DNA of 64,000 nucleotides from Antedon mediterranea (taxonomy: Eukaryota; Animalia; Echinodermata): assembly GCF_964355755.1 (NCBI RefSeq), contig NC_092678.1, positions 9,502,422 to 9,566,421 on the forward strand, given 5' to 3'. Made by a program: the position numbers and the translations under genes. Shown one piece after another: positions 1 through 64,000 of this stretch (its first letter is position 1; every line of letters begins with the position of its first letter). The notes beneath the pieces were generated by a model, which saw only the letters and a list, made by a program, of their open reading frames with translations, was not told where the DNA came from and ran no database searches.

Positions 1-103
1 CGTAAAGAGGTATACAAGATAATAATAATGATTACATAGAATTCAGTCCTGTAAATAAATGGACACTGGAAAAATATATATTTATGTGAAAATTGTATCT
101 TAC

Positions 104-3100
104 CAGCATTTCATCTATGGTGTCCTCCACACTTGAAAATGCAACCTAGAAAAGATATACCTTAAAGTGAAGTATGTATTGCATTTGGGATAATAAAAGC
201 TTAACATTAAAATGATTTAAGATGCGAAATTGTTTTCCTTTAATTGGTAGTTATACAGCATTTATAAAACACATAAATTATACAGTTTGCATTCTTTTGT
301 TTTTTATATGAAAGTAATGACCATCCTTACCTGGACATCAGCAGTTTCATTTATATTCTGAAAGAGTGTACATAGCACATTAAAAAAAGTAAAGTAAAAT
401 TTTAGTTAATAGATGCAATGTTTGTTTTCTTGTTGATTGCTAATTATTAAAGTGTTAGATATATTCTTTATATTATGTTATGTTTCAATACAAAATAAAC
501 ATCTTTCGGGATACAAACATTTTAGACAGAAATTAAATCTTACCCCACTTCTCCCGAGTTGACGGTTTGCAGCTATAAGATTGTGGGCTCTTACAGCCGT
601 CTCCCGGGACTGCGTGGCCTTATAGTACGCCTCTTGCGTTGATAATGTGTGGGCCATATGGTCAGCAACCACAACTCTTTCCCTTTCGTCGCAGTGACCC
701 CAGGACTGATGAAATTATTTAAAGAGAAGGTAATATGTAATGAATTATTCTACACTTACAAATTGTGTCCCACATAATTCCCAAAACATGGTTTATCACT
801 TGAAAATAATATTTCTCATCTATTGATAGGTTTAAAGCAATTTAAGTAACAATAATAATAATAATAATAATAAACAGTATTTATATAGCGCCTAATGGAT
901 CACTGACCCCTCTAGGTGCTTTACATAGGACCTTAAATAATGGTAATAAACTATCCCCCGCCGGACACCATTCCGGTATTTCTTAGTCGAGCTTTCGGGG
1001 ATGGAGACAATCAATAATGTGAGGAAAAAAAATGTAATAAAGCTTAACTATGTTTAACTAAGGTAAAACAATCACATACTAGAGTGGCTGCTGCCTTTCT
1101 TAAATTGGTGGGATTGATGGGCCTGGTGCTGTGTGTTACTTCCGCCCAGTGGCGGGTCATTTCCTGAGCGCATCTAATTGATGCCCCTGTGCAACTCAGG
1201 AACAGGTGGTCGGTTGCCGATTGTATTGGCCTACAGTACTTTATGTAAATCTCTATTAATTCAGCCAGCTCTTCAGTTATCACTAAATTTGCTGCACCAA
1301 ATTTACAAGATGTTTTATGCTTTGAAACCTGCAAAATCACTTAATGATTATTAACATATAACATATAGACAACATAACAAAATTGGTTGCTAATGATGTT
1401 TTATAATTCACAATACTCTTACTGTTCTGTAGCTTACTTCATCGACTTCATCATATTTCTGTAGCTGTTGATTTGTGTAATGATAGCCCACTGAACAACT
1501 TAAACTGTGTACAACAACCAAAACATGTAAACTGTTAATTCATATATTCAAGAATACATTAAAAAATGTATATTGTACTCACTTTCATAACTGACATGCC
1601 ATTTGTGGCTGCTGTTCTTTTATAATACTGCTCCAAAGTAGCATTCGCCAGAACACCAGTCCTACAACCATTATTCATGGCCAGAAGTAGCATAATATGA
1701 ATGCGGAGGAACCGCTTAGATGGGTTTTCCATATTCTCCCCGTTTTTTATCCTTTCTGAAAGTTTGATAAACAGTTTTTTTAATAAAAACTAAATTTGGT
1801 TGAGGAACCACTTTAGTACTAAAAATCTGTTGAATCAAACTTATACATCAGTAGATTTGTATAAGTGAAGGAGCAAGACCGAAAAAAACCCCATAAAATA
1901 TGGATTTCTTACCAATAGCATTTTCTAAAAGAAATACATTTTTATGATCAGCACAAATTAAAAATAAAATGAAATAAAAGAAATAACATGTGCATGTCAG
2001 GTGGATGTTAATATTCAGGATTTGATGACTAATTAGTATTGAAAAAAGCATTCTATAAACTACTAAAACAAAATAAAAATGAAAGTGTATGCCACATCAG
2101 GATTTGAACCGGAGACCTTCGACTAGAGTGCCGATGCTCTACCAGCTGAGCTATGTTAGCATTCTATACAAGAAATAGATTTTAGTGATTAGCATGGATT
2201 AACATATTCTATAAACTACTAAACAAAATAAAAGATGCATGCAGTTATCTGGTAGATGATGTTAATATGAAAGTGTATGCCACATCAGGATTTGAATCTG
2301 AAAAATTAGCATAGATCAAATTAAAATAAAAAAAAAACTCAAACACATTCTATAAACTACTAAATAAATAAACATGCATGCAGTTATCTGGTAGATGATG
2401 TTAATGAAAGTGTATGCCACATCAGGAATAAAATCTGAGTGATTAGCATAGATTAAATTAAAGTAAAATAAACACACAAACACATTCTATAAACTACTAA
2501 ACAAAAAAAAAACATGCATGCAGTTATCTGGTGGATGATGTTAATATGAAAGTGTATGCCACATCAGGATTTGAACTCGAGACCTTCGACAAGAGTGCCG
2601 ATGCTCTACCAGCTGAGCTATGATAGCATTCTATAAAAGAAATAGATTTTAGTGAATAGCATGGATTAACACATTCTATAAACTACTAAACAAAAAAAAC
2701 ATGCATGCAGTTATCTGGTGGATGATGTTAATATGAAAGTGTATGCCACATCAGGATTTGAATCTGAGTGATTAGCATAGATTAAATTAACAAAAATAAA
2801 CACACAAACACATTCTATAAACTACTAAACAAATAAACATGCATGCGGTTTTCTGGTGGATGATGTTAATATGAAAGTGTATGCCACATCAGGATTTAAT
2901 TGAACCCAAGACCCCTGACAAGAGTGCTGATGCTCTACCAGCTGAGCTATGATAGTATTCTATAAAAGAAATAGATTTTAGTGATTAGCATGGATTAACA
3001 CATTCTATAAATTATTAAACAAAAAACATGCATGCAGTAATCTGGTGGATGATGTTAATATGAAAGTGTATGCCACACCAGGATTTGAAACCGAGTGATT

Positions 3101-6100
3101 AGCATAGATTAAATTAAATAAAATAAACACACAAACACATTCTATAAACTACTAAACAAAAAAACAACATGCATGCAGTTATCTGGTGGATGACGTTAGA
3201 TATGAAAGTGTATGCCACATCAGGATTTGAATCTGAAAAATTAGCATAGATCAAATTAAAATTTAAAAAAAACTCAAACACATTCTATAAACTACTAAAT
3301 AAATAAACATGCATGCAGTTATCTGGTGGATGATGTTAATATGAAAGTATATGCCACATCAGGATTTGAATCTGAAAAATTAGCATAGATCAAATTAAAA
3401 TAAAAAAAAAACTCAAAAACATTCTATAAACTACTAAATAAATAAACATGCATGCAGTTATCTGGTAGATGATGTTAATGAAAGTGTATGCCACATCAGG
3501 AATAAAATCTGAGTGATTAGCATAGATTAAATTAAAGTAAAATAAACACACAAACACATTCTATAAACTACTAAACAAAATAAAAGATGCATGCAGTTAT
3601 CTGGTAGATGATGTTAATATGAAAGTGTATGCCACATCAGGATTTGAACCTGAGACTTTCGACAATAGTGCCGATGCTCTACCAGCTGAGCTATGTTAGC
3701 ATTCTATACAAGAAATAGATTTTAGTGATTAGCATGGATTAACATATTCTATAAACTACTAAACAAAATAAAAGATGCATGCAGTTATCTGGTAGATGAT
3801 GTTAATATGAAAGTGTATGCCACATCAGGATTTGAATCTGAAAAATTAGCATAGATCAAATTAAAATTTAAAAAAAACTCAAACACATTCTATAAACTAC
3901 TAAATAAATAAACATGCATGCAGTTATCTGGTAGATGATGTTAATGAAAGTGTATGCCACATCAGGAATAAAATCTGAGTGATTAGCATCGATTAAATTA
4001 AAGTAAAATAAACACACAAACACATTCTATAAACTACTAAACAAAAAAAAAACATGCATGCAGTTATCTGGTGGATGATGTTAGATATGAAAGTGTATGC
4101 CACATCAGGATTTGAACCCGAGACCTTCGACAAGAGTGCCGATGCTCTACCAGCTGAGCTATGATAGCATTCTATAAAAGAAATAGATTTTAGTGATTAG
4201 CATGGATTAACACATTCTATAAATTATTAAACAAAAAACATGCATGCAGTAATCTGGTGGATGATGTTAATATGAAAGTGTATGCCACATCAGGATTTGA
4301 ATCCGAGTGATTAGCATAGATTAAATTAAATAAAATAAACACACAAACACATTCTATAAACTACTAAACAAAAAAACAACATGCATGCAGTTATCTGGTG
4401 GATGACGTTAGATATGAAAGTGTATGCCACATCAGGATTTGAATCTGAAAAATTAGCATAGATTAAATTAAAATAAAATAAAAACACAAACACATTCTAT
4501 AAACTACTAAACAAATAAACATGCATAGTTATCTGGTGGATGATATTAAAAGTGTATGCCACATCAGGATTTGAATCTGAGTGATTAGCATTAAATTAAA
4601 ATAAATAAAAACACAAACACATTCTATAAACTACTAAACAAATAAACATGCATGCAGTTATCTGGTAGACGATATTAGATATGAAAGTGTATGCCACATC
4701 AGGATTTGAACCCAAGACCCCCGACAAGAGTGCCGATGCTCTACCAGCTGAACTATGATAGTATTCTATAAAAGAAATAGATTTTAGTGATTTGCATGGA
4801 TTAACACATTCTATAAACTACTATTAAACAAAATAACATGCAGTTATCTGGTGGATGATGTTAATATGAAAGTGTGGTTGATTTAAGCATAGATTAAATC
4901 AAATTTAAATAAAACAAACACACTCTATAAACTACTAAACAAAATAAAAGATGCATGCAGTTATCTGGTAGATGATGTTAATATGAAAGTGTATGCCACA
5001 TCAGGATTTGAACCTGAGACTTTCGACAATAGTGCCGATGCTCTACCAGCTGAGCTATGATAGTATTCTATAAAAGAAATAGATTTTAGTGATTAGCATG
5101 GATTAACACATCCTATAAACCACTAAAACAAAATATGAAAAATTAAATACACAGTTATTGAGTGGATGATGTATGACACATCAGGATTTGAACTAGATGT
5201 AAATGTTCAGAAATAGGGTTATTTATTTATTATAAAATTATGTGTGAATATTTTTGCCTTTAAAATAGTTTACTTTTCCCATTCTCCTAGTTTAATTTAA
5301 TAAAATTAAAATTGCCAATCATCCAATGCCTGAAATAAAAGATAACATACTACATTTTTATATATCAATAGTAAAAGTAAAAGGATAGCCGGCCAGACAA
5401 CCATAATAATATTGTGCAAGAATGCACCCAGATAGATTTAGGGTACTTGGAAATCAATTTAACTACTACTGTACTTAGTTTAGTAAAAGGATTTTGATCA
5501 TTTATATAGTGACCTTGTCCTGGTAAATACAGGTGAACCTTAGAATAATATCATAATCAACATTTTACCTATACCTAATTACCTTTACTAACACAATGAA
5601 AAAATAAGCTAGGATTAAGGTTAGTTTTAGTTATTTCTCCTAGTTTCTCCTAGTCTTTACCTAATAACATACAATATGATAAATCTTATGATTATGAATA
5701 CATTTTATGGATAAAGAAATAATATATAAAAAAACATACCAACTATGCTTTTAATTGTTTTCTCAGATTTTCTGAGATAATGGGATTGTTCGTCCGCCGA
5801 AACTAGATCACCTTAAAAGAAAATTAAAACATATTATTATTATTATTTCAATTTAAATAATATGACTTTCAAACATTTGATGAAAAGAAAAACTTTAATT
5901 CAGTAGATGTTACCTTCAATTTCTTCATGCTTTTTGGCCTTTTCTTCAGAAATGCGTTTTCTGAGAGCCTTGCTCAGGCCTTTGCATGCATCTTTGCACT
6001 TGTATATTTCGGCAAGCGAAACAGATTTAGATTCGTATATTGAAATGTATTCCAATATTTTCACAAAGGAGCACAGGTAGTGTCTTAACGTGGAGCCAGC

Positions 6101-9100
6101 AAGCTTCAATTGTAAATGGCTAACAGCACTAAACAATTATTTTTAAAAAAATGAAAAGAAGAGTACAATACACAAAAATCAAATATTCAAATATGTAATA
6201 TCTTCATTATAGTAATTAGGATCGAGTGATTCATGGTAACTTCACATGGTTTCAAATTCAACTTAACATTTATTTGTTCCTTCAAGAAAATTAAGGTAGC
6301 AGGCTTAATAACACAATAATACATTAGACTCACAATCTATAGCTGACATTTAAGAAAACTTTTATTTTAATGCTAAATGAAATTTAAATTGTTTGGCTTC
6401 TTCCTTTTTCTATTAATATAATTGTAATAAAAAAATGTTACGTCTTTATTATCTTTGGAGAATATCCCTTCTCCCCTGCTTCACTCCAAATTCCCTCTAT
6501 CTCCTTTATGACCTGTGCTGCATGCTTTGCCGGTATTTTTAAAGTTTCTAACATGTAGGCCTTGAACCGGCTCATTGTTGTAGATGGCTCTATAGAAGTT
6601 AAAAAGGCTTTAATGACATTAAAAATAAGTCCATTCTTGGAAAACAAAGTTCAGGATCCGAAAGTTGACCCATGACATAATTATTATTATATTACAATTG
6701 TTATTATTACAGTAATTTTATTTATTAGTGTCTGGGATTGGTTATCTAAATTAATATTAACTATTTGGGATAAAGAGAACATTGTATTTGACCTAAAAGT
6801 AGTAGTTAGTAGTAGAAATTAGGTACTTATAATTCTCCAGCATAGATAAAATGAATAAGAATTGTTTTTGTCAATAAAAGGTACACATTTATTTTTAAAT
6901 TGAAACTATTAATTATCTATCAAAAAATGAAACTTTATAATAATTTTATAAATAAAAGGTTACCTGCAAATTTACAGACTTTTTGTTGTCTGAACTTAAT
7001 ATATTCAGGACTGCCAACCTAAAAAAAATGTAAATGTATAACTTACCTATATAACTTTGATTTGCATCACAATTAAGCTAAGAAATTAGCATGGATTAAG
7101 ACATACAGCGAAAATTAAAGTATTTAAAAACAATTACAAAGTAAATAAAAAATAAACATGCATGCAGTTATCTGATGGATGATGTTAATATGAAAGTGTA
7201 TGCCACATCAGGATTTGAATCTGAGTGATTAGCATAGATTAAATTAAAATAAAATAAACACACAAACTACTAAACAAAAAAACATGCATGCAGTTATCTG
7301 GTGGATGATGTTAGATATGAAAGAGACTTTCGACAAGAGTGCCGGTGCTCTACCAGCTGAGCTATGATAGCATTCTATAAAAGAAATAGATTTTAGTGAA
7401 TAGCATGGATTAACACATTCTATAAACTACTAAACAAAAAAAACGTGCATGCAGTTATCTGGTGGATGATGTTAATATAAAAGTGTATGCCACATCAGGA
7501 TTTGAATCTGAAAAATTAGCATAGATCAAATTAAAATAAAAAAAAACTCAAACACATTCTATAAACTACTAAACAAAAAACATGCATGCAGTTATCTGGT
7601 GGATGATGTTAATATGAAAGTGTATGCCACATCAGGATTTGAATCTTAGTGATTAGCATAGATTAAATTAAAATAAAATAAACACACAAACACATTCTAT
7701 AAACTACTAAATAAATAAACATGCATGCAGTTATCTGGTGGATGATGTTAGATATGAAAGTGTATGCCACATCAGGATTTGAATCTGAAAAATTAGCATA
7801 GATTAAATTTAAAAAAAACAAACACACAAACACATTCTATAAACTACTAAACAAATAAACATTCATGCAGTTATCTGGTGGATGATGTTAATATGAAAGT
7901 GTATGCCACATCAGGATTTGAATCTGAGTGATTAGCATAGATTAAATTAAAATAAAACAAACATACAAACACATTCTATAAACTACTAAACAAATAAACA
8001 TGCATGCAGTTATCTGGTGGATGATGTTAATATGAAAGTGTATGCCACATCAGGATTTGAATCTGAGTGATTAGCATAGATTAAATTAAAATAAAACAAA
8101 CATACAAACACATTCTATAAACTACTAAACAAATAAACATTCATGCAGTTATCTGGTGGATGATGTTAATATGAAAGTGTATGCCACATCAGGATTTGAA
8201 TCTGAGTGATTAGCATAGATTAAATTAAAATAAAACAAACACACAAACACATTCTATAAACTACTAAATAAATAAACATGCATGCAGTTATCTGGTGGAT
8301 GATGTTAATATGAAAGTGTATGCCACATCAGGATTTGAACCCGAGACCTTCGACAAGAGTGTCGATGCTCTACCAGCTGAGCTATGATAGCATTCTATAA
8401 AAGAAATAGATTTTAGTGATTAGCATGGATTAACACATTCTATAAACTACTAAACAAATAAACATGCATGCAGTTATCTGGTAGATGATGTTAATATGAA
8501 AGTGTATGCCACATCAGGATTTGAATCTGAGTGATTAGCATAGATTAAATTAAAGTAAAATAAACACACAAACACATTCTATAAACTACTAAACAAAAAC
8601 AAAAAACATGCATGCAGTTATCTGGTGGATGATGTTAATATGAAAGTGTATGCCACATCAGGATTTGAACCCGAGACCTTAGACAAGAGTGCCGATGCTC
8701 TACCAGCTGAGCTATGATAGCATTCTATAAAAGAAATAGATTTTAGTGATTAGCATGGATTAACACATTCTATAAACTATTAAACAAAAAACATTCATGC
8801 AGTTATCTGGTGGATGATGTTAATATGAAGGTGTATGCCACATCAGGATTTGAATCCGAGTGATTAGCATAGATTAAATTAAAGTAAAATAAACACACAA
8901 ACACATTCTAAACTACTAAACAAAAAAAAAACATGCATGCAGTTATCTGGTGGATGATGTTAATATGAAAGTGTATGTATGCCACATCAGGATTTGAACC
9001 TGAGACTTTCAACAAGAGTGCCGATGCTCTACCAGCTGAGCTATGATAGTATTCTATAAAAGAAATAGATTTTAGTGATTAGCATGGATTAACACATTCT

Positions 9101-12100
9101 ATAAACCACTAAAACAAAATATTAAAAATTAAATACACAGTTATTGAGTGGATGATGTATGACACATCAGGATTTGAACTAGATGTAAATGTTCAGAAAT
9201 AGGGTTATTTATTTATTATAAAATTATGTGTGAATATTTTTGCCTTTAAAATAGTTTACTTTTCCCATTCTCCTAGTTTAATTTAATAAAATTAAAATTG
9301 CCAATCATCCAATGCCTGAAATAAAAGATAACATACTACATTTTTATATATCAATAGTAAAAGTAAAAGGATAGCCAGCCAGACAACCATAATAATATTG
9401 TGCAAGAATGCACCCAGATAGATTAAGGGTACTTGGAAATCAATTAACTACTACTGTACTTAGTTTAGTAAAAGGATTTTGATCATTTACATAGTGACCT
9501 TGTCCTGGTAAATACAGGTGAACCTTAGAACAATATCATAATCAACATTTTACCTATACCTAATTACCTTTACTAACACAATGACTAAATAAGCTAGGAT
9601 TAAGGTTAGTTTTAGTTATTTCTCCTAGTTTCTCCTAGTCTTTACCTAATAACATACAATATGATAAATCTTATGATTATCAATACATTTAATGGATAAA
9701 GAAATAATATAAAAAACATACCAACTATGCTTTTAATTGTTTTCTCTGATTTTCTGAGATAATGGGATTGTTCGTCCGCCGAAACTAGATCACCTTAAAA
9801 GAAAATTAAAACATATTATTATTATTATTTCAATTTAAATAATATGACTTTCAAACATTTGATGAAAAGAAAAACTTTAATTCAGTAGATGTTACCTTCA
9901 ATTTCTTCGTGCTTTTTGGCCTTCTCTTCAGAAATGCGTTTTCTGAGAGCTTTGCTCAGGCCTTTGCATGCATCTTTGCACTTGTATATTTCGGCAAGCG
10001 AAACAGATTTAGATTCGTATATTGAAATGTAGTCCAATATTTTCACAAAGGAGCTCAGGTAGTGTCTTAACGTGGAGCCAGCAAGCTTCAATTGTAAATG
10101 GCTAACAGCACTAAACAATTATTTTTTAAAAAATGAAAAGAAGAGTACAATACACAAAAATCAAATATTAAAATATGTAATGTCTTCATTATAGTAATTA
10201 GGATCGAGTGATTCATGGTAACTTCACATGGTTTAAAATTCAATTCAAATTCAACTTAACATTTATTTCTTCCTTCAAGAAAATGAAGGTAGCAGGCAAT
10301 AATACATTATACTCACAATCTATAGCTGACATTTAAAAAAACTTTTTATTTTAATGCTAAATGAAATTTAAATTGTTTGGCTTCTTCCTTTTTCTATTAA
10401 TATAATTGTAATAAAAAAATGTTACGTCTTTATTATCTTTGGAGAATATCCCTTCTCCCCTGCTTCACTCCAAATTCCCTCTATCTCCTTTATGACCTGT
10501 GCTGCATGCTTTGCCGGTATTTTTAAAGTTTCTAACATGTAGGCCTTGAACCGGCTCATTGTTGTAGATGGCTCTATAGAAGTTAAAAAGACTTTAATGA
10601 CATTAAAAATAAGTCCATTCTTGGAAAACAAAGTTCAGGATCCGAAAGTTGACCCATGACATAATTATTATTATATTACAATTGTTATTACAGTAATTTT
10701 ATTTATTAGTGTCTGGGATTGGTTATCTAAATTAATATTAATTATTTAGGATAAAGAGAACTTTGTATTTGACCTAAATGTAGTAGTTAGTAGTAGAAAT
10801 TAGGTAATTATAATTCTCCAGCATAGATAAAATGAATTGTTTTTGTCAATAAAAGGTACACATTTATTTTTAAATTGAAACTATTAATTATCTATCAAAA
10901 AATGAAACTTTATAATAATTTTATAAATAAAAGGTTACCTGCAAATTTACAGACTTTTTGTTGTCTGAACTTAATATATTCAGGACTGCCAACCAAAAAA
11001 AAAATGTAAATGTATAACTTACCTATATAACTTTGATTTGCATCACAATTAAGCTAAGAAATTAGCATGGATTAAGACATACAGCGAAAATTAAAGTATT
11101 TAAAAACAATTACAAAGTAAATAAAAAATAAACATGCATGCAGTAATCTGGTGGATGATGTTAATATGAAAGTGTATGCCACATCAGGAATTGAATCTGA
11201 GTGATTACCATAGATTAAATTAAAATAAAATAAACACACAAACACATTCTATAAACTACTAAACAAAAAAACATGCATGCAGTTATCTGGTGGATGATGT
11301 TAATATGACAGTTTATGCCACATCAGGATTCGAACCCGAGACCTTCAACAAGAGTGCCGATGCTCTACCAGCTGAGCTATGATAGCATTCTATAAAAGAA
11401 ATAGATTTTAGTGATTAGCATGGATTAACATATTCTATAAACTACTAAACAAAAAAACGTGCATGCAGTTATCTGGTGGATGATGTTAATATGAAGGTGT
11501 ATGACACATCAGGATTTGAATCTGAAAAATTAGCATAGATTAAACTAAAATAAAACAAAACACAAACACATTCTATAAACTACTAAACAAATAAACATGC
11601 ATGCAGTTATCTGGTGGATGATGTTAATATGAAAGTGTATGCCACATCAGGATTTGAACCCGAGATCTTCGACAAGAGTGCCGATGCTCTACCAGCTGAG
11701 CTATGATAGCATTCTATAAAAGAAATAGATTTTAGTGATTAGCATAGATTAACACATTCTATAAACTACTAAACAAAAAAAACATGCATGCAGTTATCTG
11801 GTGGATGATGTTAATATGAAAGTGTATGCCACATCAGGATTTGAATCTGAGTGATTAGCATAGATTAAATTAACAAAAATAAACACACAAACACATTCTA
11901 TAAACTACTAAACAAATAAACATGCATGCAGTTATCTGGTGGATGATGTTAATATGAAAGTGTATGCCACATCAGGATTTTAATCCGAGTGATTAGCATA
12001 GATTAAATTAAAGTAAAATAAACACACAAACACATTCTATAAACTACTAAACAAAAAAACATGCATGCAGTTATCTGGTAGATGATGTTAATATGAAAGT

Positions 12101-16972: not shown

Positions 16973-17369
16973 ACAATCATTTTATGGTGGTATTTTTTTA
17001 TTTTGGCCATTTAAAACAAAAAATCTCTGTACTTTAGTACAGGGATTAAGGCACTTGGTTATGCAATAAAAATTTATGTTAGGATAATAAAAGGTAATAA
17101 AAGTACCTAGCCTATAGCCTTACCTTTCTACAAACAGTCTGTTTTAACGATCAGATCAATAGTTACAGATGAATTTAAAAATTTAAAAAAACACCGCGTC
17201 CGGATGGGTTTATTTATAAAATTAGTGAAAGAGGCTGAATGCCAGTGATTACCTAACTGCTGAAAATTCTTCAATCGACGCGAGTGCATCTGAAATCAGC
17301 ATAATTGCACCCAAAAAACAGGTTGCATCGCGATATGCTGATCGGCCGCCGCTGATTAGCATTGAAAAG

Positions 17370-17388
17370 TTGCATTGTGCGCTCCCTC
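17370..17388 (-). other. Putative element terminus / recombination half-site (TTGCATTGTGCGCTC + CCTC)
   Basis: Inverted match to 30430-30443. Directly abuts the first satellite unit. Confidence 0.65.
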
Positions 17389-21105: not shown

Positions 21106-21136
<31 letters not shown>

Positions 21137-45520: not shown

Positions 45521-45524
45521 TAAT

Positions 45525-45840: not shown

Positions 45841-45869
45841 GTTAGGCCAAGAGTCTGGACATACCCTAA

Positions 45870-47020: not shown

Positions 47021-47029
47021 GTGATTTGT

Positions 47030-47540
47030 TTATGAAAAGTAAAAAACAAAAAGTAATACTACTAAAACATGGGGGAATTATAAATAGTATTCTTAAAGGC
47101 AAAAGTCAGACTGTTCATGAAATTATTCCAGATAAACTTAAAGAATCATTAAATGATGTTAATATTGAATGTAATTCCAATGAACAAAAAGCCGACTTGT
47201 TTAATGATTATTTTGTAAATATCGGCAGAAATTAGCAAGCAAGATTGATTGTTCTCAAAAAAGTTCCAATGATTATTTGAAAAATTCAATTAGTTCCTCT
47301 TTTATTTTGGAAACCTGTTTTAGAATTTAAAGAATTATTAAGAAATATAGATATAAAAAAGTCCACTTGACATGACCAGTTATCTGCTAGATTAATTAAG
47401 GATTCATCTATTGTTATTGCAAAGCCATTAAAATATATTATTAACTTATAACTTGTCACAGGTGTTTTTCATGATGACTTGAAGGTGGCACAAGTGACTC
47501 CAATTTTTAAAAAGGGTTATAAGGATATCCTTGGAAATTA
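47030..47540 (+). pseudogene. CR1/L2-group LINE ORF2 fragment
   Basis: TWGIINSIL..KADLFNDYFVNIG..KST*HDQLSARLIK..IAKPLKYIINL..GVFHDDLKVAQVTPIFKKG..GNY, truncated by the satellite. Confidence 0.85.
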
Positions 47541-50500: not shown

Positions 50501-53500
50501 CAACTGTCTTTTGACTAAACAATTCACTGATTATTCTACTATGTATTTGCAGTTTAAATTATCTAAACTGTTACTGAATAATAAACGGTCTTTTGACTAG
50601 ACAATTCACTGATTATTCTACTATTTACACACAGTTTAAATTCCCTAAACTGTTACTGACTAATCAACTGTCTTTTGACTAAACAATTCACTGATTATTC
50701 TACTATGTATTTGCAGTTTAAATTATCTAAACTGTTACTGAATAATAAACGGTCTTTTGACTAGACAATTCACTGATTATTCTACTATTTACACACAGTT
50801 TAAATTCCCTAAACTGTTACTGACTAATCAACTGTCTTTTGACTAAACAATTCACTGATTATTCTACTATGTATTTGCAGTTTAAATTATCTAAACTGTT
50901 ACTGAATAATCAACTGTATTTTGACTAAACAATTCACTGATTATTCTACTATGTATTTGCAGTTTAAATTCTATAAACTGTTACTGAATAATAAACAGTC
51001 TTTTGACTAAACAATTCACTGATTATTCTACTATGTATTTACAGTTTAAATTCTCTAAACTGTTACTGAATAATCAACTGTCTTTTGACTAGACAATTCA
51101 CTGATTATTCTACTATGTATTTGCAGTTTAAATTATCTAAACTGTTACTGACTAATCAACTACATTTTGACTAGACAATTCACTGATTATTCTACTATGT
51201 ATTTGCAGTTTAAATTATCTAAACTGTTACTGAATAATCAACTGTCTTTTGACTAGACAATTCACTGATTATTCTATGTGTTTGCAGTTTAAATTCTCTA
51301 AACTGTTACTGAATAATCAACTGTCTTTTGACTAAAAAATTCACTGATTATTCTACTATGTATTTGCAGTTTAAATTCTCTAAACTGTTACTGAATAATC
51401 AACTGTCTTTTGACTAAAAAATTCACTGATTATTCTACTATGTATTTGCAGTTTAAATTCTCTAAACTGTTACTGAATAATCAACTGTCTTTTGACTAAA
51501 AAATTCACTGATTATTCTACTATGTATTTGCAGTTTAAATTCTCTAAACTGTTACTGAATAATCAACTGTATTTTGACTAGACAATTCATTGATTATTGT
51601 ACTATTTACACACAGTTTAAATTATCTAAACTGTTACTGACTAATCAACTACTTTTGACTAGACAATTCACTGATTATTCTACTATGTATTTGCAGTTTA
51701 AATTATCTAAACTGTTACTGACTAATCAACTACTTTTGACTAGACAATTCACTTATTATTCTACTATGTATTTGCAGTTTAAATTATCTAAACTGTTACT
51801 GACTAATCAACTACTTTTGACTAGACAATTCACTGATTATTCTACTATGTATTTGCAGTTTAAATTATCTAAACTGTTACTGACTAATCAACTACATTTC
51901 GACTAGACAATTCACTGATTATTCTACTATGTATTTGCAGTTTAAATTATCTAAACTGTTACTGACTAATCAACTACATTTTGACTAGACAATTCACTGA
52001 TTATTCTACTATGTATTTGCAGTTTAAATTCTCTAAACTGTTACTGACTAATCAACTACATTTTGACTAAACAATTCACTGATTATTCTAATATGTATTT
52101 GCAGTTTAAATTCTCTAAACTGTTAAGTGTTACTGAATAATCAACTGTCTTTTGACTAAAAAATTCACTGATTATTCTACTATGTATTTGCAGTTTAAAT
52201 TCTCTAAACTGTTACTGAATAATAAACGGTCTTTTGACTAGACAATTCATTGATTATTGTACTATTTAGACACAGTTTAAATTCTCTAAACTGTTACTGA
52301 CTAATCAACTGCCTTTTGACTAGACAATTCACTGATTATTCTACTATGTATTTGCAGTTTAAATTATCTAAACTGTTACTGAATAATAAACGGTCTTTTG
52401 ACTAGACAATTCACTGATTATTCTACTATTTACACACAGTTTAAATTCCCTAAACTGTTACTGACTAATCAACTACATTTTGACTAGACAATTCACTGAT
52501 TATTCTACTATGTATTTGCAGTTTAAATTATCTAAACTGTTACTGACTAATCAACTACATTTTGACTAGACAATTCACTGATTATTCTACTATGTATTTG
52601 CAGTTTAAATTCTCTAAACTGTTACTGAATAATCAACTGTATTTTGACTAGACAATTCATTGATTATTGTACTATTTACACACAGTTTAAATTATCTAAA
52701 CTGTTACTGACTAATCAACTACTTTTGACTAGACAATTCACTGATTATTCTACTATGTATTTGCAGTTTAAATTCTCTAAACTGTTACTGAATAATCAAC
52801 TGTATTTTGACTAGACAATTCATTGATTATTGTACTATTTACACACAGTTTAAATTATCTAAACTGTTACTGACTAATCAACTACTTTTGACTAGACAAT
52901 TCACTGATTATTCTACTATGTATTTGCAGTTTAAATTATCTAAACTGTTACTGACTAATCAACTACTTTTGACTAGACAATTCACTGATTATTCTACTAT
53001 GTATTTGCAGTTTAAATTATCTAAACTGTTACTGACTAATCAACTACATTTCGACTAGACAATTCACTGATTATTCTACTATGTATTTGCAGTTTAAATT
53101 ATCTAAACTGTTACTGACTAATCAACTACTTTTGACTAAACAATTCACTGATTATTCTACTATGTATTTGCAGTTTAAATTCTCTAAACTGTTACTGACT
53201 AATCAACTACATTTCGACTAGACAATTCACTGATTATTCTACTATGTATTTGCAGTTTAAATTATCTAAACTGTTACTGATTAATCAACTACATTTCGAC
53301 TAGACAATTCACTGATTATTCTACTATGTATTTGCAGTTTAAATTATCTAAACTGTTACTGACTAATCAACTACATTTTGACTAGACAATTCACTGATTA
53401 TTCTACTATGTATTTGCAGTTTAAATTCTCTAAACTGTTACTGAATAATAAACGGTCTTTTGACTAAACAATTCACTGATTATTCTACTATGTATTTGCA

Positions 53501-56112
53501 GTTTAAATTCTCTAAACTGTTACTGACTAATCAACTGCCTTTTGACTAGACAATTCACTGATTATTCTACTATGTATTTACAGTTTAAATTCTCTAAACT
53601 GTTACTGACTAATCAACTACATTTTGACTAAACAATTCACTGATTATTCTACTATGTATTTGCAGTTTAAATTATCTAAACTGTTACTGACTAATCAACT
53701 ACTTTTGACTAGACAATTCACTGATTATTCTACTATGTATTTACAGTTTAAATTCCCTAAACTGTTACTGAATAATCAACTACATTTTGACTAAAAAATT
53801 CACTGATTATTATACTATGTATTTGCAGTTTAAATTCTCTAAACTGTTACTGAATAATCAACTGTATTTTGACTAGACAATTCATTGATTATTGTACTAT
53901 TTAGACACAGTTTAAATTATCTAAACTGTTACTGACTAATCAACTGCCTTTTGACTAAACAATTCACTGATTATTCTACTATGTATTTGCAGTTTAAATT
54001 CTCTAAACTGTTACTGAATAATCAACTGCCTTTTGACTAAACAATTCACTGATTATTCTACTATGTATTTGCAGTTTAAATTCTCCAAACTGTTACTGAC
54101 TAATCAACTACATTTCGACTAGACAATTCACTGATTATTCTACTATTTGCAGTTTAAATTATCTAAACTGTTACTGACTAATCAACTACTTTTGACTAGA
54201 CAATTCACTGATTATTCTACTATGTATTTGCAGTTTAAATTCTCTAAACTGTTACTGACTAATCAACTACTTTTGACTAGACAATTCACTGATTATTCTA
54301 CTATGTATTTGCAGTTTAAATTATCTAAACTGTTACTGACTAATCAACTACATTTCGACTAGACAATTCACTGATTATTCTAATATGTATTTGCAGTTTA
54401 AATTCTCTAAACTGTTACTGAATAATCAACTGTATTTCGACTAAACAATTCATTGATTATTGTACTATTTACCAACAGTTTAAATTATCTAAACTGTTAC
54501 TGAATAATCAACTGTCTTTTGACTAAAAAATTCACTTATTATTCTACTATGTATTTGCAGTTTAAATTCTCTAAACTGTTACTGAATAATCAACTGTATT
54601 TTGACTAGACAATTCATTGATTATTGTACTATTTACACACAGTTTAAATTATCTAAACTGTTACTGACTAATCAACTACTTTTGACTAGACAATTCACTG
54701 ATTATTCTACTATGTATTTGCAGTTTAAATTATCTAAACTGTTACTGATTAATCAACTACATTTCGACTAGACAATTCACTGATTATTCTACTATGTATT
54801 TGCAGTTTAAATTATCTAAACTGTTACTGATTAATCAACTACATTTCGACTAGACAATTCACTGATTATTCTACTATGTATTTGCAGTTTAAATTATCTA
54901 AACTGTTACTGATTAATCAACTACATTTCGACTAGACAATTCACTGATTATTCTACTATGTATTTGCAGTTTAAATTATCTAAACTGTTACTGACTAATC
55001 AACTACTTTTGACTAGACAATTCACTGATTATTCTACTATGTATTTGCAGTTTAAATTCTCTAAACTGTTACTGAATAATCAACTACTTTTGACTAGACA
55101 ATTCACTGATTATTCTACTATGTATTTGCAGTTTAAATTCTCTAAACTGTTACTGAATAATCAACTGTCTTTTGACTAGACAATTCACTTATTATTCTAC
55201 TATTTACACACAGTTTAAATTATCTAAACTGTTACTGACTAATCAACTACATTTTGATTAAACAATTTACTGATTATTCTACTATGTATTTGCAGTTTAA
55301 ATTATCTAAACTTTTACTGACTAATCAACTACTTTTGACTAGACAATTCACTGATTATTCTACTATGTATTTGCAGTTTAAATTATCTAAACTGTTACTG
55401 ACTAATCAACTACTTTTGACTAGACAATTAACTGATTATTCTACTATGTATTTGCAGTTTAAATTCTCTAAACTGTTACTCAATAATCAACTGTCTTTTG
55501 ACTAGACAATTCACTGATTATTCTACTATGTATTTGCAGTTTAAATTATCTAAACTGTTACTGATTAATCAACTACATTTCGACTAGACAATTCACTGAT
55601 TATTCTACTATTTACACACAGTTTAAATTCTCTAAACTGTTCCTGAATAATCAACTGTATTTTGACTAAACAATTCACTGATTATTCTACTATGTATTTG
55701 CAGTTTAAATTCTCTAAACTGTTACTGATTAATCAACTACATTTCGACTAGACAATTCACTGATTATTCTACTATGTATTTACAGTTTAAATTCTCTAAA
55801 CTGTTACTGACTAATCAACTACATTTTGAATAAACAATTCACTGATTATTCTAATATGTATTTGCAGTTTAAATTATCTAAACTGTTACTGATTAATCAA
55901 CTACATTTCGACTAGACAATTCACTGATTATTCTACTATGTATTTGCAGTTTAAATTATCTAAACTGTTACTGATTAATCAACTACATTTCGACTAGACA
56001 ATTCACTGATTATTCTACTATGTATTTGCAGTTTAAATTATCTAAACTGTTACTGACTAATCAACTACATTTTGACTAGACAATTCACTGATTATTCTAC
56101 TATGTATTTGCA
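47535..56112. repeat. 81/82-bp satellite (~105 units, 8.6 kb) at the 3' end of YR copy 2
   Basis: Unit CTAAACTGTTACTGACTAATCAACTACTTTTGACTAGACAATTCACTGATTATTCTACTATGTATTTGCAGTTTAAATTAT. The 27-aa periodic ORFs are artefacts of the 81-bp variant. Confidence 0.97.
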
Positions 56113-59100
56113 AATCTTCATAGTTCTATAGAAAACTTGCAATGCTTTTAAATAATTTCTTGCTACTGCATGCCACTGAAATTAAAAACATAAACCTACC
56201 TTTGGATGGATCCTCCTCATTTTGTCATATAACTGTTGAAATTCATAGTAATGGAGAACTGGATTTTTGTTATAGACTTCTCTTGCCTACAAAAAAAAAT
56301 AAAAATTGTATTTAATAATGTGATGGTGATTATTACAATTAAATAGATAATACATAAACATTAAACATACTGTTCTTTTTGGCACATGACCCTCTTCTAT
56401 TTGTCTGCCAAACAATTTAAATACAGCGTCCATAACGTCTTGGTTGTCGAATTTCGACTTTGGGCCATGTTTGCTTAGAGGATGGCTTACAGACTAGTTA
56501 TATTGAAAGTAGAAAAATAATAAAGTCAAATTAATAGGTGAAATAAGTTTTACAGAAAATGTACTTTAAGTATTTCAAATGAGAATTGTATTGATGTTTT
56601 AGATAACAATAATAATGACAATAATACCAGGAGTAATTAAAGTGCTTGTAAGATTATCTGGTGGATGATGTTAATATGAAATTGTATGCCACATATGGAT
56701 TTGATTATGGGTGATTAGCATAGATTAAATTAAAATAAAATAAACACATTCTATAAACTCAGTACTACACAAAACTAAAAATGCATGCAGTTATTTGGTG
56801 GTTGATGTTAAAATAAAAGTGTATGCCACATCAGGATTTGAACCCGAGACAAGAGTGTCGATGCTCTACCAGCTGAGCTATGATAGCATCCTATAAAAGA
56901 AATAGATTTTAGTGATTAGCATGGATTAACACATTCTATAAACCACTAAACAAACAAAAAACGTGCATGCAGTTATCTGGTGGATGATGTTAATATGAAA
57001 GTGTATGGCACATCAGGATTTGAACCCGAGACCAGAGTGCCGATGCTCTACAAGCTGAGCTATGATAGCATCCTATAAAAGAAATAGATTTTAGTGATTA
57101 GCATGGATCAACACATTCTATAAACCACTAAACAAACAAAAAACGTGCATGCAGTTATCTGGTGGATGATGTTAATATGAAGGTGTATGCCACATCAGGA
57201 TTTGAATCTGAAAAATTAGCATAGATTAAACTAAAATAAAACAAACACACAAACACATTCTATAAACTACTAAACAAATAAACATGCATGCAGTTATCTG
57301 GTGGATGATGTGAGATATGAAAGTGTATGCCATATCAGGATTTGAATCTGAAAAATTAGTATAGATTAAATAAAAAAAAAAGCACAAACACATTCTATAA
57401 ACTACTAAGCTACCAACTGAGCTATGATAGCATTCTATAACAGAAGAAGATGTTGATATTTAGTATGGAAAAATCATTCTGAAAACTACTACATTTAAAC
57501 AATATACAACTGCAAAGTGAGGATTTGAACAATTACTTTAGAAACTACAGAAGTTATCTTGGGGAGGCCTCAAATTAGTTTGTATAAATAAATTAACTAA
57601 GCATACAAACTAGAGAATACAAAGAGTAATGTGCAAATTTAAAAAGTAAACATTTTCCTGTTTTTTTGAGATACCAAGACCTGATAAAAACAGTTAAAGA
57701 ATGTCCATACAAGTACAAGGGACATTTTGCTGACCTGAAATAAAAACTAATTAAACAAGTACAGTAAAGCCAAATATACCAGGAAACTTTGCTGACCTGG
57801 TAAAAACATTAGTGCAATATATTGGGAGACTCAAAATCCTACCATCACCCAAGGAATCATACTGCAGTACTAAAACGATAATGTACAGTACTCATACAAA
57901 TTGTTTAAAAATACTACATCAACGTTGACCATATATTGCAGTACCAATTAAAAAGAGTGTGGACTGGAGTGTGGTCTGGCAATATTAGTTTGATGCTTTA
58001 CAAATGTGTCCTTATTAACAATTATTGAATACTTACAGATGATGGCGCTTCATTCGCATGTGCTTGAGAAATTTCCTGGTGAATGTAAAATAATATTGTA
58101 CATAATACCATTACTTGTTTCATTATTCGTAAAGAGGTATACAAGATAATAATAATGATTACATAGAATTCAGTCCTGTAAATAAATGGACACTGGAAAA
58201 ATATATATTTATGTGAAAATTGTATCTTACCAGCATTTCATCTATGGTGTCCTCCACACTTGAAAATGCAACCTAGAAAAGATATACCTTAAAGTGAAGT
58301 ATGTATTGCATTTGGGATAATAAAAGCTTAATATTAAAATGATTTAAGATGCGAAATTGTGTTCCTTTAATTGGTAGTTATACAGCATTTATAAAACACA
58401 TAAATTATACAGTTTGCATTCTTTTGTTTTTTATATGAAAGTAATGGCCATCCTTACCTGGACATCAGCAGTTTCATTTATATTCTGAAAAAGTGTACAT
58501 AGCACATTAAAAAAAGTAAAGTAAAATTTTAGTTAATAGATGCAATGTTTGTTTTCTTGTTGATTGCTAATTATTAAAGTGTTAGATATATTCTTTATAT
58601 TATGTTATGTTTCAATAAAAAATAAACATCTTTCGGGATACAAACATTTTAGACAGAAATTAAATCTTACCCCACTTCTCCCGAGTTGACGGTTTGCTGC
58701 TATAAGATTGTGGGCTCTTACAGCCGTCTCCCGGGATTGCGTGGCTTTATAGTATGCCTCTTGCGTTGATAATTTGTGGGCCATATGGTCAGCAACCACA
58801 ACTCTTTCCCTTTCGTCGCAGTGACCCCAGGACTGATGAAATTATTTAAAGAGAAGGTAATATGTAATGAATTATTCTACACTTACAAATTGTGTCCCAC
58901 ATAATTCCCAAAACAAAATATAACTGATGGTTTATCACTTGAAAATAATATTTCTCATCTATTGATAGGTTTAAAGCAATAAGTAACAATCACATACTAG
59001 AGTGGCTGCTGCCTTTCTTAAATTGGTGGGATTGATGGGCCTGGTGCTGTGTGTTACTTCCGCCCAGTGGCGGGTCATTTCCTGAGCGCATCTAATTGAT

Positions 59101-62100
59101 GCCCCTGTGCAACTCAGGAACAGGTGGTCGGTTGCCGATTGTATTGGCCTACAGTACTTTATGTAAATCTCTATTAATTCAGCCAGTTCTTCAGTTATCA
59201 CTAAATTTGCTGCACCAAATTTACAAGATGTTTTATGCTTTGAAACCTGCAAAATCACTTACAGTAATGATTATTAACATATAACATATAGACAACATAA
59301 CAAAATTGGTTGCTAAGGATGTTTTATAATTCACAATACTCTTACTGTTCTGTAGCTTACTTCATCGACTTCATCATATTTCTGTAGCTGTTGAACTTAA
59401 ACTGTGTACAACAACCAAAACATGTAAACTGTTAATTCATATATTCAAGAATACATTAAAAAATGTATATTTTACTCACTTTCATAACTGACATGCCATT
59501 TGTGGCTGCTGTTCTTTTATAGTACTGCTCCAATGTAGCATTTGCCAGAACACCAGTCCTACAGCCATTGTTCATGGCCAGAAGTAGCATAATATGAATG
59601 CGGAGGAACCGCTTAGATGGGTTTTCCAAACTCTCCCCGTTCTTTATCGTTTCTGAAAGTTTGATAAACAGTTTTTTTAATAAAAACTAAATTAGGTTGA
59701 GGAACCACTTTAGTACTAAAAATCTGTTGAATCAAACTTATACATCAGTAGATTTGTATATAAAGTGAAGGAGCAAGACCGAAAAAAAACCCCATAAAAT
59801 ATGGATTTCTTACCAATAGCATTTACTAAAAGAAATAGATTTTTATGATCAGCAAAAATTAAAAATAAAATGAAATAAAAGAAATAAACATGTGCATGTC
59901 AGGTGGATGTTAATATTCAGGATTTGATGACTAATTAGTATTGAAAAAAGCATTCTATAAACTACTAAAACAAAATAAAAATGAAAGTGTATGCCAGATC
60001 AGGATTTGAACCGGAGACCTTCGACTAGAGTGCCGATGCTCTACCAGCTGAGCTATGTTAGCATTCTATACAAGAAATAAATTTTAGTGATTAGCATGGA
60101 TTAACACATTCTATAAACTACTAAACAAAAACATGCATGCAGTTATCTGGTGGATGATGTTAATATGAAAGTGTATGCCACATCAGGATTTGAATCTGAG
60201 TGATTAGCATAGATTAAATTAAAATAAAACAAACATACAAACACATTATATAAACTACTAAATAAATAAACATGCATGCAGTTATCTGGTGGATGATGTG
60301 AGATATGAAAGTGTATGCCACATCATGAATTAAATCTGAGTGATTAGCATAGATTAAATTAAAGTAAAATAAACACACAAACACATTCTATAAACTACTA
60401 AACAAATAAACATGCATGCAGTAATCTGGTGGATGATGTGAGATATGAAAGTGTATGCCATATCAGGATTTGAATCTGAAAAATTAGCATAGATTAAACT
60501 AAAATAAAACAAACACACAAACACATTCTATAAACTACTAAACAAATAAACATGCATGCAGTTATCTGGTGGATGATGTGAGATATGAAAGTGTATGTCA
60601 CATCTGAATTTGAAAAATTAGTATAGATTAAATTAAAATAAACAAAAACTGAAACACATTCTATAAACTACTAAACAAATAAACATGCATGCAGTTATCT
60701 GGTGGATGATGTTAGATATGAAAGTGTATGCCACATCAGGATTTGAATCCGAGTGATTAGCATAGATTAAATTAACAAAAATAAACACACAAACACATTC
60801 TATAAAGTACTGAATAAATAAACATGCATGCAGTTATCTGGTGGATGATGTGAGATATGAAAGTGTATGCCACATCAGGATTTGAACCCGAGACCTTCGA
60901 CAAGAGTGCCGATGCTCTACCAGCTGAGCTATGATAGCATTCTATAAAAGAAATAGATTTTAGTGATTAGCATGGATTAACACATTCTATAAACTATTAA
61001 ACAAAAAACATGCATGCAGTTATCTGGTGGATGATGTTAATATGAAAGTGTATGCCACATCAGGATTTGAATCCGAAAAATTAGCATAGATTAAATTAAA
61101 AAAAAACAAACACACAAACACATTCTATAAACTACTAAACAAATAAACATTCATGCAGTTATCTGGTGGATGATGTTAATATGAAAGTGTATGCCACATC
61201 AGGATTTGAATCTGAGTGATTAGCATAGATTAAATTAAAATAAAACAAACATACAAACACATTCTATAAACTACTAAACAAATAAACATTCATGCAGTTA
61301 TCTGGTGGATGATGTTAATATGAAAGTGTATGCCACATCAGATTTGAATCTGAGTGATTAACATAGATTAAATTAAAATAAAACAAACACACAAACACAT
61401 TCTATAAACTACTAAATAAATAAACATGCATGCAGTTATCTGGTGGATGATGTTAGATATGAAAGTGTATGCCACATCAGGATTTGAATCTGAGTGATTA
61501 GCATAGATTAAATTAAAATAAAACAAACATACAAACACATTCTATAAACTACTAAACAAATAAACATGCATGCAGTTATCTGGTGGATGATGTTAATATG
61601 AAAGTGTATGCCACATCAGGATTTGAATCTGAGTGATTAGCATAGATTAAATTAAAATAAAACAAACATACAAACACATTCTATAAACTACTAAACAAAT
61701 AAACATGCATGCAGTTATCTGGTGGATGATGTTAATATGAAAGTGTATGCCACATCAGGATTTGAATCTGAGTGATTAGCATAGATTAAATTAAAATAAA
61801 ATAAACATACAAACACATTCTATAAACTACTAAACAAATAAACATTCATGCAGTTATCTGGTGGATGATGTTAATATGAAAGTGTATGCCACATCAGGAT
61901 TTGAATCTGAGTGATTAGCATAGATTAAATTAAAATAAAACAAACACACAAACACATTCTATAAACTACTAAATAAATAAACATGCATGCAGTTATCTGG
62001 TGGATGATGTTAATATGAAAGTGTATGCCACATCAGGATTTGAACCCGAGACCTTCGACAAGAGTGCCGATGCTCTACCAGCTGAGCTATGATAGCATTC

Positions 62101-63947
62101 TATAAAAGAAATAGATTTTAGTGATTAGCATGGATTAACACATTCTATAAACTACTAAACAAATAAACATGCATGCAGTTATCTGGTGGATGATGTTAAT
62201 ATGAAAGTGTATGCCACATCAGGATTTGAATCTGAGTGATTAGCATAGATTAAATTAAAGTAAAATAAACACACAAACACATTCTATAAACTACTAAACA
62301 AAAAAAAAACATGCATGCAGTTATCTGGTGGATGATGTTAATATGAAAGTGTATGCCACATCAGGATTTGAACCTGAGACTTTCAACAAGAGTGCCGATG
62401 CTCTACCAGCTGAGCTATGATAGTATTCTATAAAAGAAATAGATTTTAGTGATTAGCATGGATTAACACATTCTATAAACCACTAAAACAAAATATTAAA
62501 AATTAAATACACAGTTATTGAGTGGATGATGTATGACACATCAGGATTTGAACTAGATGTAAATGTTCAGAAATAAGGTTATTTATTTATTATAAAATTA
62601 TGTGTGAATATTTTTGCCTTTAAAATAGTTTACTTTTCCCATTCTCCTAGTTTAATTTAATAAAATTAAAATTGCCAATCATCCAATGCCTGAAATAAAA
62701 GGTAACATACTACATTTTTATATATCAATAGTAAAAGTAAAAGGATAGCCAGCCAGACAACCATAATAATATTGTGCAAGAATGCACCCAGATAGATTAA
62801 GGGTACTTGGAAATCAATTAACTACTACTGTACTTAGTTTAGTAAAAGGATTTTGATCATTTACATAGTGACCTTGTCCTGGTAAATACAGGTGAACCTT
62901 AGAACAATATCATAATTAACATTTTACCTATACCTAATTACCTTTACTAACACAATGACTAAATAAGCTAGGATTAAGGTTAGTTTTAGTTATTTCTCCT
63001 AGTTTCTCCTAGTCTTTACCTAATAACATACAATATGATAAATCTTATGATTATCAATACATTTTATGGATAAAGAAATAATATAAAAAACATACCAACT
63101 ATGCTTTTAATTGTTTTCTCAGATTTTCTGAGATAATGGGATTGTTCGTCCGCCGAAACTAGATCACCTTAAAAGAAAATTAAAACATATTATTATTATT
63201 ATTTCAATTTAAATAATATGACTTTCAAACATTTGATGAAAAGAAAAACTTTAATTCAGTAGATGTTACCTTCAATTTCTTCGTGCTTTTTGGCCTTCTC
63301 TTCAGAAATGCGTTTTCTGAGAGCTTTGCTCAGGCCTTTGCATGCATCTTTGCACTTGTATATTTCGGCAAGCGAAACAGATTTAGATTCGTATATTGAA
63401 ATGTAGTCCAATATTTTCACAAAGGAGCACAGGTAGTGTCTTAACGTGGAGCCAGCAAGCTTCAATTGTAAATGGCTAACAGCACTAAACAATTATTTTT
63501 AAAAAAATGAAAAGAAGAGTACAATACACAAAAATCAAATATTAAAATATGTAATATCTTCATTATAGTAATTAGGATCGAGTGATTCATGGTAACTTCA
63601 CATGGTTTAAAATTCAATTCAAATTCAACTTAACATTTATTTCTTCCTTCAAGAAAATGAAGGTAGCAGGCAATAATACATTATACTCACAATCTATAGC
63701 TGACATTTAAGAAAACTTTTTATTTTAATGCTAAATGAAATTTAAATTGTTTGGCTTCTTCCTTTTTCTATTAATATAATTGTAATAAAAAAATGTTACG
63801 TCTTTAATATCTTTGGAGAATATCCCTTCTCCCCTGCTTCACTCCAAATTCCCTCTATCCCCTTTATGACCTGTGCTGCATGCTTTGCCGGTATTTTTAA
63901 AGTTTCTAACATGTAGGCCTTGAACCGGCTCATTGTTGTAGATGGCT
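56092..63947 (-). CDS. Intron-containing tyrosine recombinase gene, copy 2 (includes the 3' exons; continues beyond the window end)
   Basis: Exons 63947-63800, 63484-63270, 63167-63096, 59652-59480, 59246-58998, 58832-58671, 58484-58458, 58272-58231 and 58075-58037, then uncertain micro-exons. Next come 56493-56371 (SKFDNQDVMDAVFKLFGRQIEEGHVPKRT) and 56286-56200 (AREVYNKNPVLHYYEFQQLYDKMRRIHPK). Stop at 56182 or 56092. Confidence 0.85.
56640..57480 (-). repeat. tRNA-derived intronic satellite, array 4
   Basis: Same family. The long units here carry a deletion in the variable loop/anticodon arm. Confidence 0.85.
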
Positions 63948-64000
63948 CTATAGAAGTTAAAAAGACTTTAATGACATTAAAAATAAGTCCATTCTTGGAA
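58128..64000 (+). repeat. Segmental direct repeat of window positions 1-~6640 (offset 58127)
   Basis: Position 1 CGTAAAGAGG recurs at 58128. Exons and introns are colinear and highly similar. Confidence 0.97.
59950..62560 (-). repeat. tRNA-derived intronic satellite, array 5 (orthologous to array 1)
   Basis: Same units, with a different number and order than in copy 1. Confidence 0.9.

Follow-up and report, generated by a model that had tools for sequence, protein, structure and literature searches.

Two copies of a tyrosine recombinase gene

The window analyzed here, a 64,000-nucleotide stretch of the echinoderm Antedon mediterranea (contig NC_092678.1, positions 9,502,422 to 9,566,421), contains two copies of a spliced tyrosine recombinase (YR) gene and, upstream of the first, a satellite bordered by short inverted arms; the genes and arms are considered below as parts of a candidate transposon. 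Both YR genes lie on the minus strand, 53-58 kb apart, are diverged by ~1% in substitutions, and are truncated by the window edges. The first-pass annotation, made from the sequence alone, had placed two spliced copies in the same orientation ~58.1 kb apart, and comparison of the window with itself after masking of tandem arrays bore this out:

1-853 versus 58128-58990, co-oriented: 97.2% match, offset 58,127
1067-2048 versus 58985-59950, co-oriented: 94.8% match
9179-10626 versus 62553-64000, co-oriented: 99.2% match, offset 53,374

In the catalytic region, substitutions alone separate the copies at 26 of 1801 sites, and in the upstream block at 11 of 1448. The gene models are as follows:

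104..16366, minus strand: YR gene copy 1, modelled exons, 3' end past the window edge
7018-6964, 6589-6442, 6128-5914 and 5811-5740, minus strand: copy 1 core exons, modelled
1755-1583 (R motif GCRTG) and 1328-1080 (KHKT, TNLRK), minus strand: copy 1 core exons, modelled
705-544 (MAH, AYY), 357-331 and 145-104, minus strand: copy 1 core exons, modelled
14062-13935 and 13571-13472, minus strand: copy 1 zinc-finger exons, modelled
15026-14824, minus strand: copy 1 acidic exon, modelled
16366-14386, minus strand: candidate further 5' exons of copy 1
56200..63947, minus strand: YR gene copy 2, 11 modelled exons, 5' part past the window edge

Under predicted splicing, the YR coding model joins eight GT-AG exons into 362 codons that are free of stops in both copies, with the motifs GCRTG, SKHKT, TNLRK, DHMAH and QEAYY following in that order at positions 174-313 of the modelled core; the 11 modelled exons of copy 2 give 445 codons with no stop. 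The modelled exons would encode two C2H2 fingers, a helical domain, the YR domain (R-K-R-H-Y) and C-terminal helices. By its catalytic residues, present in order, the predicted product belongs to the tyrosine recombinase superfamily. One set of public contigs, run X5, was considered as an RNA sample and rejected: its contigs cover the introns and behave as DNA, and the splicing described here is therefore modelled.

Relatives of the recombinase

A HMMER search of 1.84 billion representative proteins with one exon returned six matches, four of which are real relatives: crinoid, brittle-star and scallop proteins without names, from Anneissia (two), Amphiura and Argopecten. The remaining matches, P0001 and P0006, are repetitive fungal proteins and were dropped as spurious. 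The R, K, R, H and Y motifs are kept in the crinoid, brittle-star and scallop relatives. The crinoid protein also has the same layout, with C2H2 fingers, a helical domain, the YR domain, an acidic or low-complexity linker and C-terminal helices, and the copy 2 core aligns with it over 436 amino acids at 26% identity (E 2e-42). Thr or Ser occupies the first HxxR position in the window protein and in all four aligned relatives; its occurrence in every aligned member indicates a family trait rather than decay. In the Anneissia gene model LOC117114584 (P0002/P0012), a partial YR is fused ahead of a full YR, which suggests tandem or recombinant copies there too. The scallop protein (P0004/P0013) repeats one YR exon-sized unit.

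Profile searches lent weak but consistent support to the putative YR identity. Pfam returned phage integrase at E 0.15, and exon 1328-1080 matched XerD at E 9e-4, far under the curated cut-off. P0002 was the sole protein returned by the profile search. Word-index protein searches with two single exons as queries gave no match, PDB sequence searches gave no YR match, and neither single exons nor relatives had a Pfam match to DUF3504, GCR1_C or DUF3435. In the Atlas, integrase clusters scored 0.92, and the neighbours of the crinoid relative were cnidarian and chordate clusters without names at 0.95-0.96. When a model of the brittle-star relative P0003 (mean pLDDT, a per-residue model confidence, of 61) was searched against the PDB with Foldseek, the best 25 ranks were all YRs, led by XerH, XerA, Tn1549 Int and Cre; the best E was 0.009 at a root-mean-square deviation of ~8, from what is a moderate model. 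The top matches of a VIA structure search with the relative's model were taken by the C-terminal helices (best Z 7.7).

Ends of the element and the satellite between them

Upstream of YR copy 1, two arms enclose 13,045 bases of satellite (17382-30423 in the tandem-repeat annotation):

17385..30429, plus strand: satellite of 17-25-bp monomers, commonest CTATCTCTCTCTCGCTGAT, of the (CT)n-CGCTGATCTAT type
17370..17384: arm of end B, TTGCATTGTGCGCTC, on the upstream side of the YR gene; CCTCG follows, and then satellite with no gap
30430..30443: end A arm GAGCGCACATGCAA, with CCTCA directly before it
17295..17356: subterminal motifs of end B, TATGCTGAT at 17295 (minus) and 17334 (plus), GCTGAT at 17351
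30575..31444, plus strand: end A subterminal repeats, TATGCTGAT at 30581, 30969 and 31434, and ATCGTTTT five times (30643-31279)

The arms form an inverted pair, identical in 14 of 15 aligned columns with one gap, and of 1500 pairs of positions drawn at random from unique DNA, one reached their anchored score. Each strand of the window carries the 9-mer GAGCGCACA a single time, in both cases at a border of the satellite. CCTC(A/G) pentamers flank both arms, the junctions being those of two different copies; of the 20 occurrences of CCTC in the satellite, two are flush with the arms. Outside the satellite, TATGCTGAT, which contains the satellite's GCTGAT, was found five times: two sites lie at most 90 bp from end B and the other three no more than ~1 kb from end A; the motif was picked post hoc, and its binomial p of 5e-6 therefore overstates the case. 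This shared motif would tie both ends to one family. The sites of YRs typically consist of two 11-13-bp inverted arms with a 6-8-bp spacer, and Cryptons carry 4-6-bp direct repeats (PMC3212892); in the active algal CryptonF-1_cRei, a 5-bp CACCG end recombines with CAYCG targets (PMC9977147). By analogy, the junctions described here would fit this pattern of arms and a short core.

The annotation had unique DNA stopping at 17384 and resuming at 30430, with inverted arms around a 13-kb satellite, and it had read these arms as the bounds of a satellite-associated YR element. The arm alignment and its random comparison uphold the former, and the multi-copy ends (below), common subterminal motif and CCTC(A/G) repeat agree with the latter. 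The satellite at 17385-30429 is likely the target of the element. We consider it probable, while allowing for considerable doubt, that the YR genes and arms represent head-to-tail copies of one CryptonV-like transposon of ~40 kb that inserts site-specifically into the (CT)n-GCTGAT satellite.

A very different account would have the arms be incidental and the locus a domesticated host gene that underwent ordinary segmental duplication. Domestication is common among Cryptons, and a gene with many introns, found in three organisms at an identity of roughly 95-98%, could be read in this way. The catalytic residues are kept here, unlike those of DUF3504 genes, the duplicated unit holds no ordinary host gene, and the combination of arms, core repeat and shared subterminal motif would be improbable by chance. 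Duplication of a domesticated gene thus fits the data poorly, and we regard it as the least credible of the explanations entertained here.

Representation of the element in public contigs

Contigs from four of nine runs (X1, X5, X6 and X9) were compared with two stretches poor in repeats. Among the X1 contigs listed, depths were 1066-1401 for the eight over 13287-17376 and 1305-1817 for the eight over 30412-37804, against a background of ~270-305, with one at 166, among unrelated contigs matching by chance. At ~4-6 times background, these depths suggest that both end regions are present in ~4-6 near-identical copies, contig depth being only a proxy for copy number and one flagged as unreliable. 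The end A junction is carried by an X1 contig (depth 1817) and by an X5 contig. The end B junction is spanned by an X5 contig, and contigs of X1 and X9 stop 8 and 4 bases short of it, respectively.

Runs X6 (organism B) and X9 (organism C) add related DNA from two further organisms. X6 matched the finger exons, 30467-32491 and 35747-37428, with depths near background and identities of roughly 95-98%, and gave little cover of 15050-16590 and 17150-17400 at 82%; 10 of its 15 finger-exon differences, among those listed, are synonymous. X5 (organism A) also holds more diverged YR pieces at 13856-14177 that share several letters with the organism B copy. Among the matches listed, these pieces have 18-22 differences per ~190-240 bases, which suggests older sublineages of the YR family. 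Scans of metagenome and viral contigs for related loci found none, and no metagenome contig matched a 20-base pattern of the terminus.

Size and content of the unit

The DNA between the end A arm and the window edge is dominated by nested repeats, some of which also occupy the YR introns:

37804..44320, plus strand: BEL/Pao long terminal repeat (LTR) retrotransposon, 341-bp LTRs 99.7% alike, 1887-aa frame, CTCCC duplication
33140..35370, minus strand: nested high-copy repeat fragment, three open frames (34063-34979) with no Pfam match
47562..56112: 82-bp satellite, 104.5 units
2049-5018, 7142-9178 and 11118-13206, minus strand: 139-bp minisatellite in the YR introns of copy 1, tRNA-like units interleaved
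About 56654-57469 and 59951-62552, minus strand: 139-bp minisatellite in the YR introns of copy 2, tRNA-like units

With the offset of 53,374 and no indels assumed, end B of copy 2 is predicted at ~70,760, ~7 kb past the window. The predicted unit from 30430 is then 40.3 kb, or ~34 kb without the BEL element, its last 7 kb being inferred from copy 1. Nested transposons and tandem arrays account for 26.0 kb of this ~40-kb unit and leave ~14.3 kb. The largest contributions are the 82-bp satellite (8.6 kb), the BEL element (6.5 kb) and the 139-bp minisatellites (5.4 kb); the remaining bloat consists of a 47-bp array, the 2.2-kb high-copy repeat fragment and retroelement-like remnants. The core element is ~14 kb, and the size of the full unit reflects bloat by nested repeats and not cargo. 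The first-pass annotation had proposed a giant, cargo-laden unit of 40-45 kb ending ~10 kb past the window. Its end is predicted to lie beyond the window, ~3 kb nearer than proposed, and ~40 kb roughly holds for this copy, but the figure drops to ~34 kb without the BEL element and includes the ~26 kb of nested repeats; the description as cargo-laden finds no support.

The BEL element is young and intact, and it is missing from the majority contigs of X1 and X5. These contigs diverge from the window at 37804 and continue differently, indicating that the majority form is without BEL. Over 33140-35370 the summed X1 depth was ~9,000-80,000 versus 1,300-1,800 alongside, and this fragment is abundant in organisms B and C also; its open frames at 34063-34979 might be taken for cargo, but were dismissed as such because they sit in a repeat of far higher copy number. 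The only reverse transcriptase or integrase genes in the unit are those of the nested BEL element, which has its own LTRs and target duplication, and of degraded remnants. A list of open reading frames (ORFs), Pfam and a scan for splice sites that had been trained on YR introns turned up no cargo protein gene in 30430-64000. ORFs in unique DNA had no Pfam match below E 0.1, no PHROGs match fell below E 0.07, and searches of viral contigs and of phages (tblastn) were empty.

These results bear on the idea that the locus holds a true cargo carrier, either an animal counterpart of the fungal Starships or what is left of a large endogenous DNA virus with the YR as its integrase. The YR gene does lie at one end of a long unit, there are candidate small exons at 35671-36798, and the Atlas placed clusters of DUF3435, the Starship captain domain, at 0.86-0.87, which is a lead only. 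Nimaviral YRs with C2H2 and SAM-like domains and microsatellite targets have been described (PMC10871703). The searches named above found no cargo or viral gene, and the nimaviruses listed in that source are 287-579 kb in size. This idea also fits poorly, and we judge it improbable.

Divergence between the copies and possible unequal crossing-over

Copy 1 carries the four-exon helical-domain block twice, at 5193-7141 and 9179-11117 (96.7%):

9179..11117, minus strand: second helical-domain block of copy 1, 99.2% to copy 2 over 9179-10626

The acceptor at 10993 in the second block is TG rather than AG. When both blocks are spliced whole, a stop follows five codons past the junction; the frame is kept if the 55-nt exon is skipped. 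Over ~1,440 sites, the upstream block is 11 substitutions from copy 2 and the downstream block 21, and this closer match of the upstream block indicates unequal exchange between two copies. Copy 1 is thus likely a damaged recombinant, which would have arisen by unequal exchange between intronic minisatellite blocks. The 139-bp minisatellite seems to have mediated the exon-block duplication. Its tRNA-like units gave 15 Rfam tRNA matches at 31-43 bits and two ARAGORN calls, and it is possibly derived from a short interspersed element.

Between copies 1 and 2 there are 14 synonymous and 7 nonsynonymous changes, for an omega of 0.15 (Fisher p 2e-5). Intron divergence (11/1148) is about equal to the nonsynonymous rate (dN, 0.008), such that omega is low through a raised synonymous rate and not through a lowered dN; the selection signal is ambiguous. 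Exons (15/653 sites) are more diverged than introns (11/1148) between 1-2048 and 58128-59950, and the exon differences are mostly synonymous and concentrated in two exons. This excess perhaps reflects patchy conversion from a diverged copy.

The main rival to a CryptonV-like transposon that inserts its own copies, and a serious one, is that such a transposon inserted here only once, at an earlier time, and that its copies were made by unequal crossing-over in the satellite or minisatellites, independently of the YR. The two visible copies are adjacent and co-oriented, as crossing-over would leave them, although site-specific insertion likewise predicts one orientation. The block duplication of copy 1 is bounded by minisatellite, and its halves stand at unequal distances from copy 2, as crossing-over would also produce. 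The arms, core and catalytic residues are nevertheless all intact, and X5 holds the more diverged YR pieces as well. At end A, the X1 contig has its start 19 bases beyond the arm, and the X5 contig there is unlike the window, pointing to flanks that vary, yet CT slippage explains this variation equally well. We hold a single insertion followed by crossing-over to be possible, while thinking it unlikely.

Several further observations weigh against the main reading, and some of them favor crossing-over. Organism B seems to have about one copy, and the X6 pattern would fit one immobile copy there; dN does not fall below intron divergence; and the estimate of 4-6 copies leans on contig depth. The second end of copy 2 and the other end of copy 1 lie past the window, leaving no complete copy in the 64 kb, and neither an independent insertion site nor an empty site was found among the window and contigs. 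The high-copy fragment at 33140-35370 seems to be common to the copies. The 5' exons of the YR gene formed no single-frame chain by inspection, and at 13559 and 15855 the window and the majority contigs are set apart by indels of one base.

Proposed mechanism and comparison with known elements

If the CryptonV-like transposon is mobile, the YR would bind the inverted arms, and recombination over the short CCTC(A/G) core would excise a circle. The circle would then recombine with a (T/C)CTCG site just ahead of GCTGAT in a satellite monomer, and the CCTC(R) / (T/C)CTCG core would fix its orientation, such that copies come to lie head to tail. More speculatively, the C2H2 fingers or the C-terminal domain may read GCTGAT, both near the ends and in each monomer. 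Since two ends would suffice for the chemistry, nested transposons and arrays could ride along. The fuller claim, that an animal YR transposon moves units of 34-40 kb intact, with satellites aboard and homing by the shared GCTGAT, is in our view doubtful. If true, it would amount to a Starship-scale vehicle in animals, able to seed and spread satellite arrays.

The element may work like CryptonV, to which it is likened by description and not by compared sequences. Insertion in microsatellites is reported for CryptonV families (PMC8869645, citing Kapitonov and Jurka 2012, Repbase Reports 12:2034), and CryptonV is also named in PMC5753468 and PMC4455052. A YR transposon that targets a satellite therefore has a precedent. 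Like CryptonV as described there, the element is an animal DNA element with a YR alone that lies within a simple-sequence satellite; set beside CryptonV, it has a predicted size of 34-40 kb, ~18 or more exons and a compound target of 17-25-bp satellite monomers. The YR has no reverse transcriptase or other transposase of its own, as is expected of a Crypton. DIRS and Ngaro were considered and rejected, as no reverse transcriptase is linked to the YR and the gene is intron-rich.

As in CryptonF/S/A/I, the YR is the only enzyme, and as in CryptonF/S, short direct repeats of 4-6 bp would serve as substrate (PMC3212892); the 5-bp near-identical core resembles that of CryptonF-1_cRei (PMC9977147). 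The 2011 definition of CryptonF/S/A/I, with no terminal inverted repeats (TIRs) and a GCR1_C, DUF3504-type or no C-terminal domain, does not accommodate the element. CryptonF/S/A/I are described as having no TIRs, unlike the arms matching at 14/15 bp here, and animal CryptonA/I as having neither terminal repeats nor a C-terminal domain, unlike the C-terminal helical domain here (PMC3212892). The N-terminal fingers and the lack of a DUF3504 or GCR1_C Pfam match likewise set it apart. Starships resemble it as large units with an intron-containing YR at one end, short direct repeats and short asymmetric TIRs, but they are fungal and defined by DUF3435 and cargo (PMC13465315), whereas no DUF3435 Pfam match and no cargo gene were found here. 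Nimaviral YRs that target telomeres or rDNA share the C2H2, SAM-like and YR domains, in some cases multiple exons, and insertion in host repeats, but they reside in viral genomes of hundreds of kb with core genes, and the likeness is by description (PMC10871703). A bar of 20 kb for large elements is used in PMC6431247, in a passage that does not mention Cryptons. We found no large animal Crypton in the literature searched, with Repbase Reports and most subscription journals outside that scope.

The locus provides concrete ends, in the form of arms, a 5-bp core and a subterminal motif common to the target. Such ends make testable a long-standing question, namely how a eukaryotic YR picks a simple-repeat target. 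If whole units of 34-40 kb move, animals would have large YR payloads, as fungi do in Starships, and satellites could be carried from one locus to another; if unequal crossing-over made the copies, the element would be no more than a modest addition to a group that is poorly described.

Other features of the unit

Minor features of the unit and its satellite are as follows:

44321..47561: degraded retroelement-like pieces, motifs found by eye, best Pfam E 0.059
45881-47019: 47-bp/259-bp tandem array (repeat annotation)
19424..19715, plus strand: non-satellite insert of ~290 bp with a short GATACTT repeat tail

The pieces at 44321..47561 are, by their motifs, presumably retroelement remnants. 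The 82-bp satellite sets in 87 bases past the last modelled exon of the YR gene and perhaps lies inside the last intron or the 3' region of the YR gene. A CTAGGC-rich, promoter-like stretch at 31900-32450 resembles one at the 5' end of the YR gene, and 35671-36798 contains several plausible minus-strand splice-site pairs, although the candidate small exons there formed no in-frame chain by inspection. These two regions possibly belong to a second, perhaps non-coding, transcript. Judged by its tail alone, the insert at 19424-19715 is likely the 3' end of a truncated long interspersed element, and it could serve as a marker to tell whether the element's satellite flanks are duplicated along with it.

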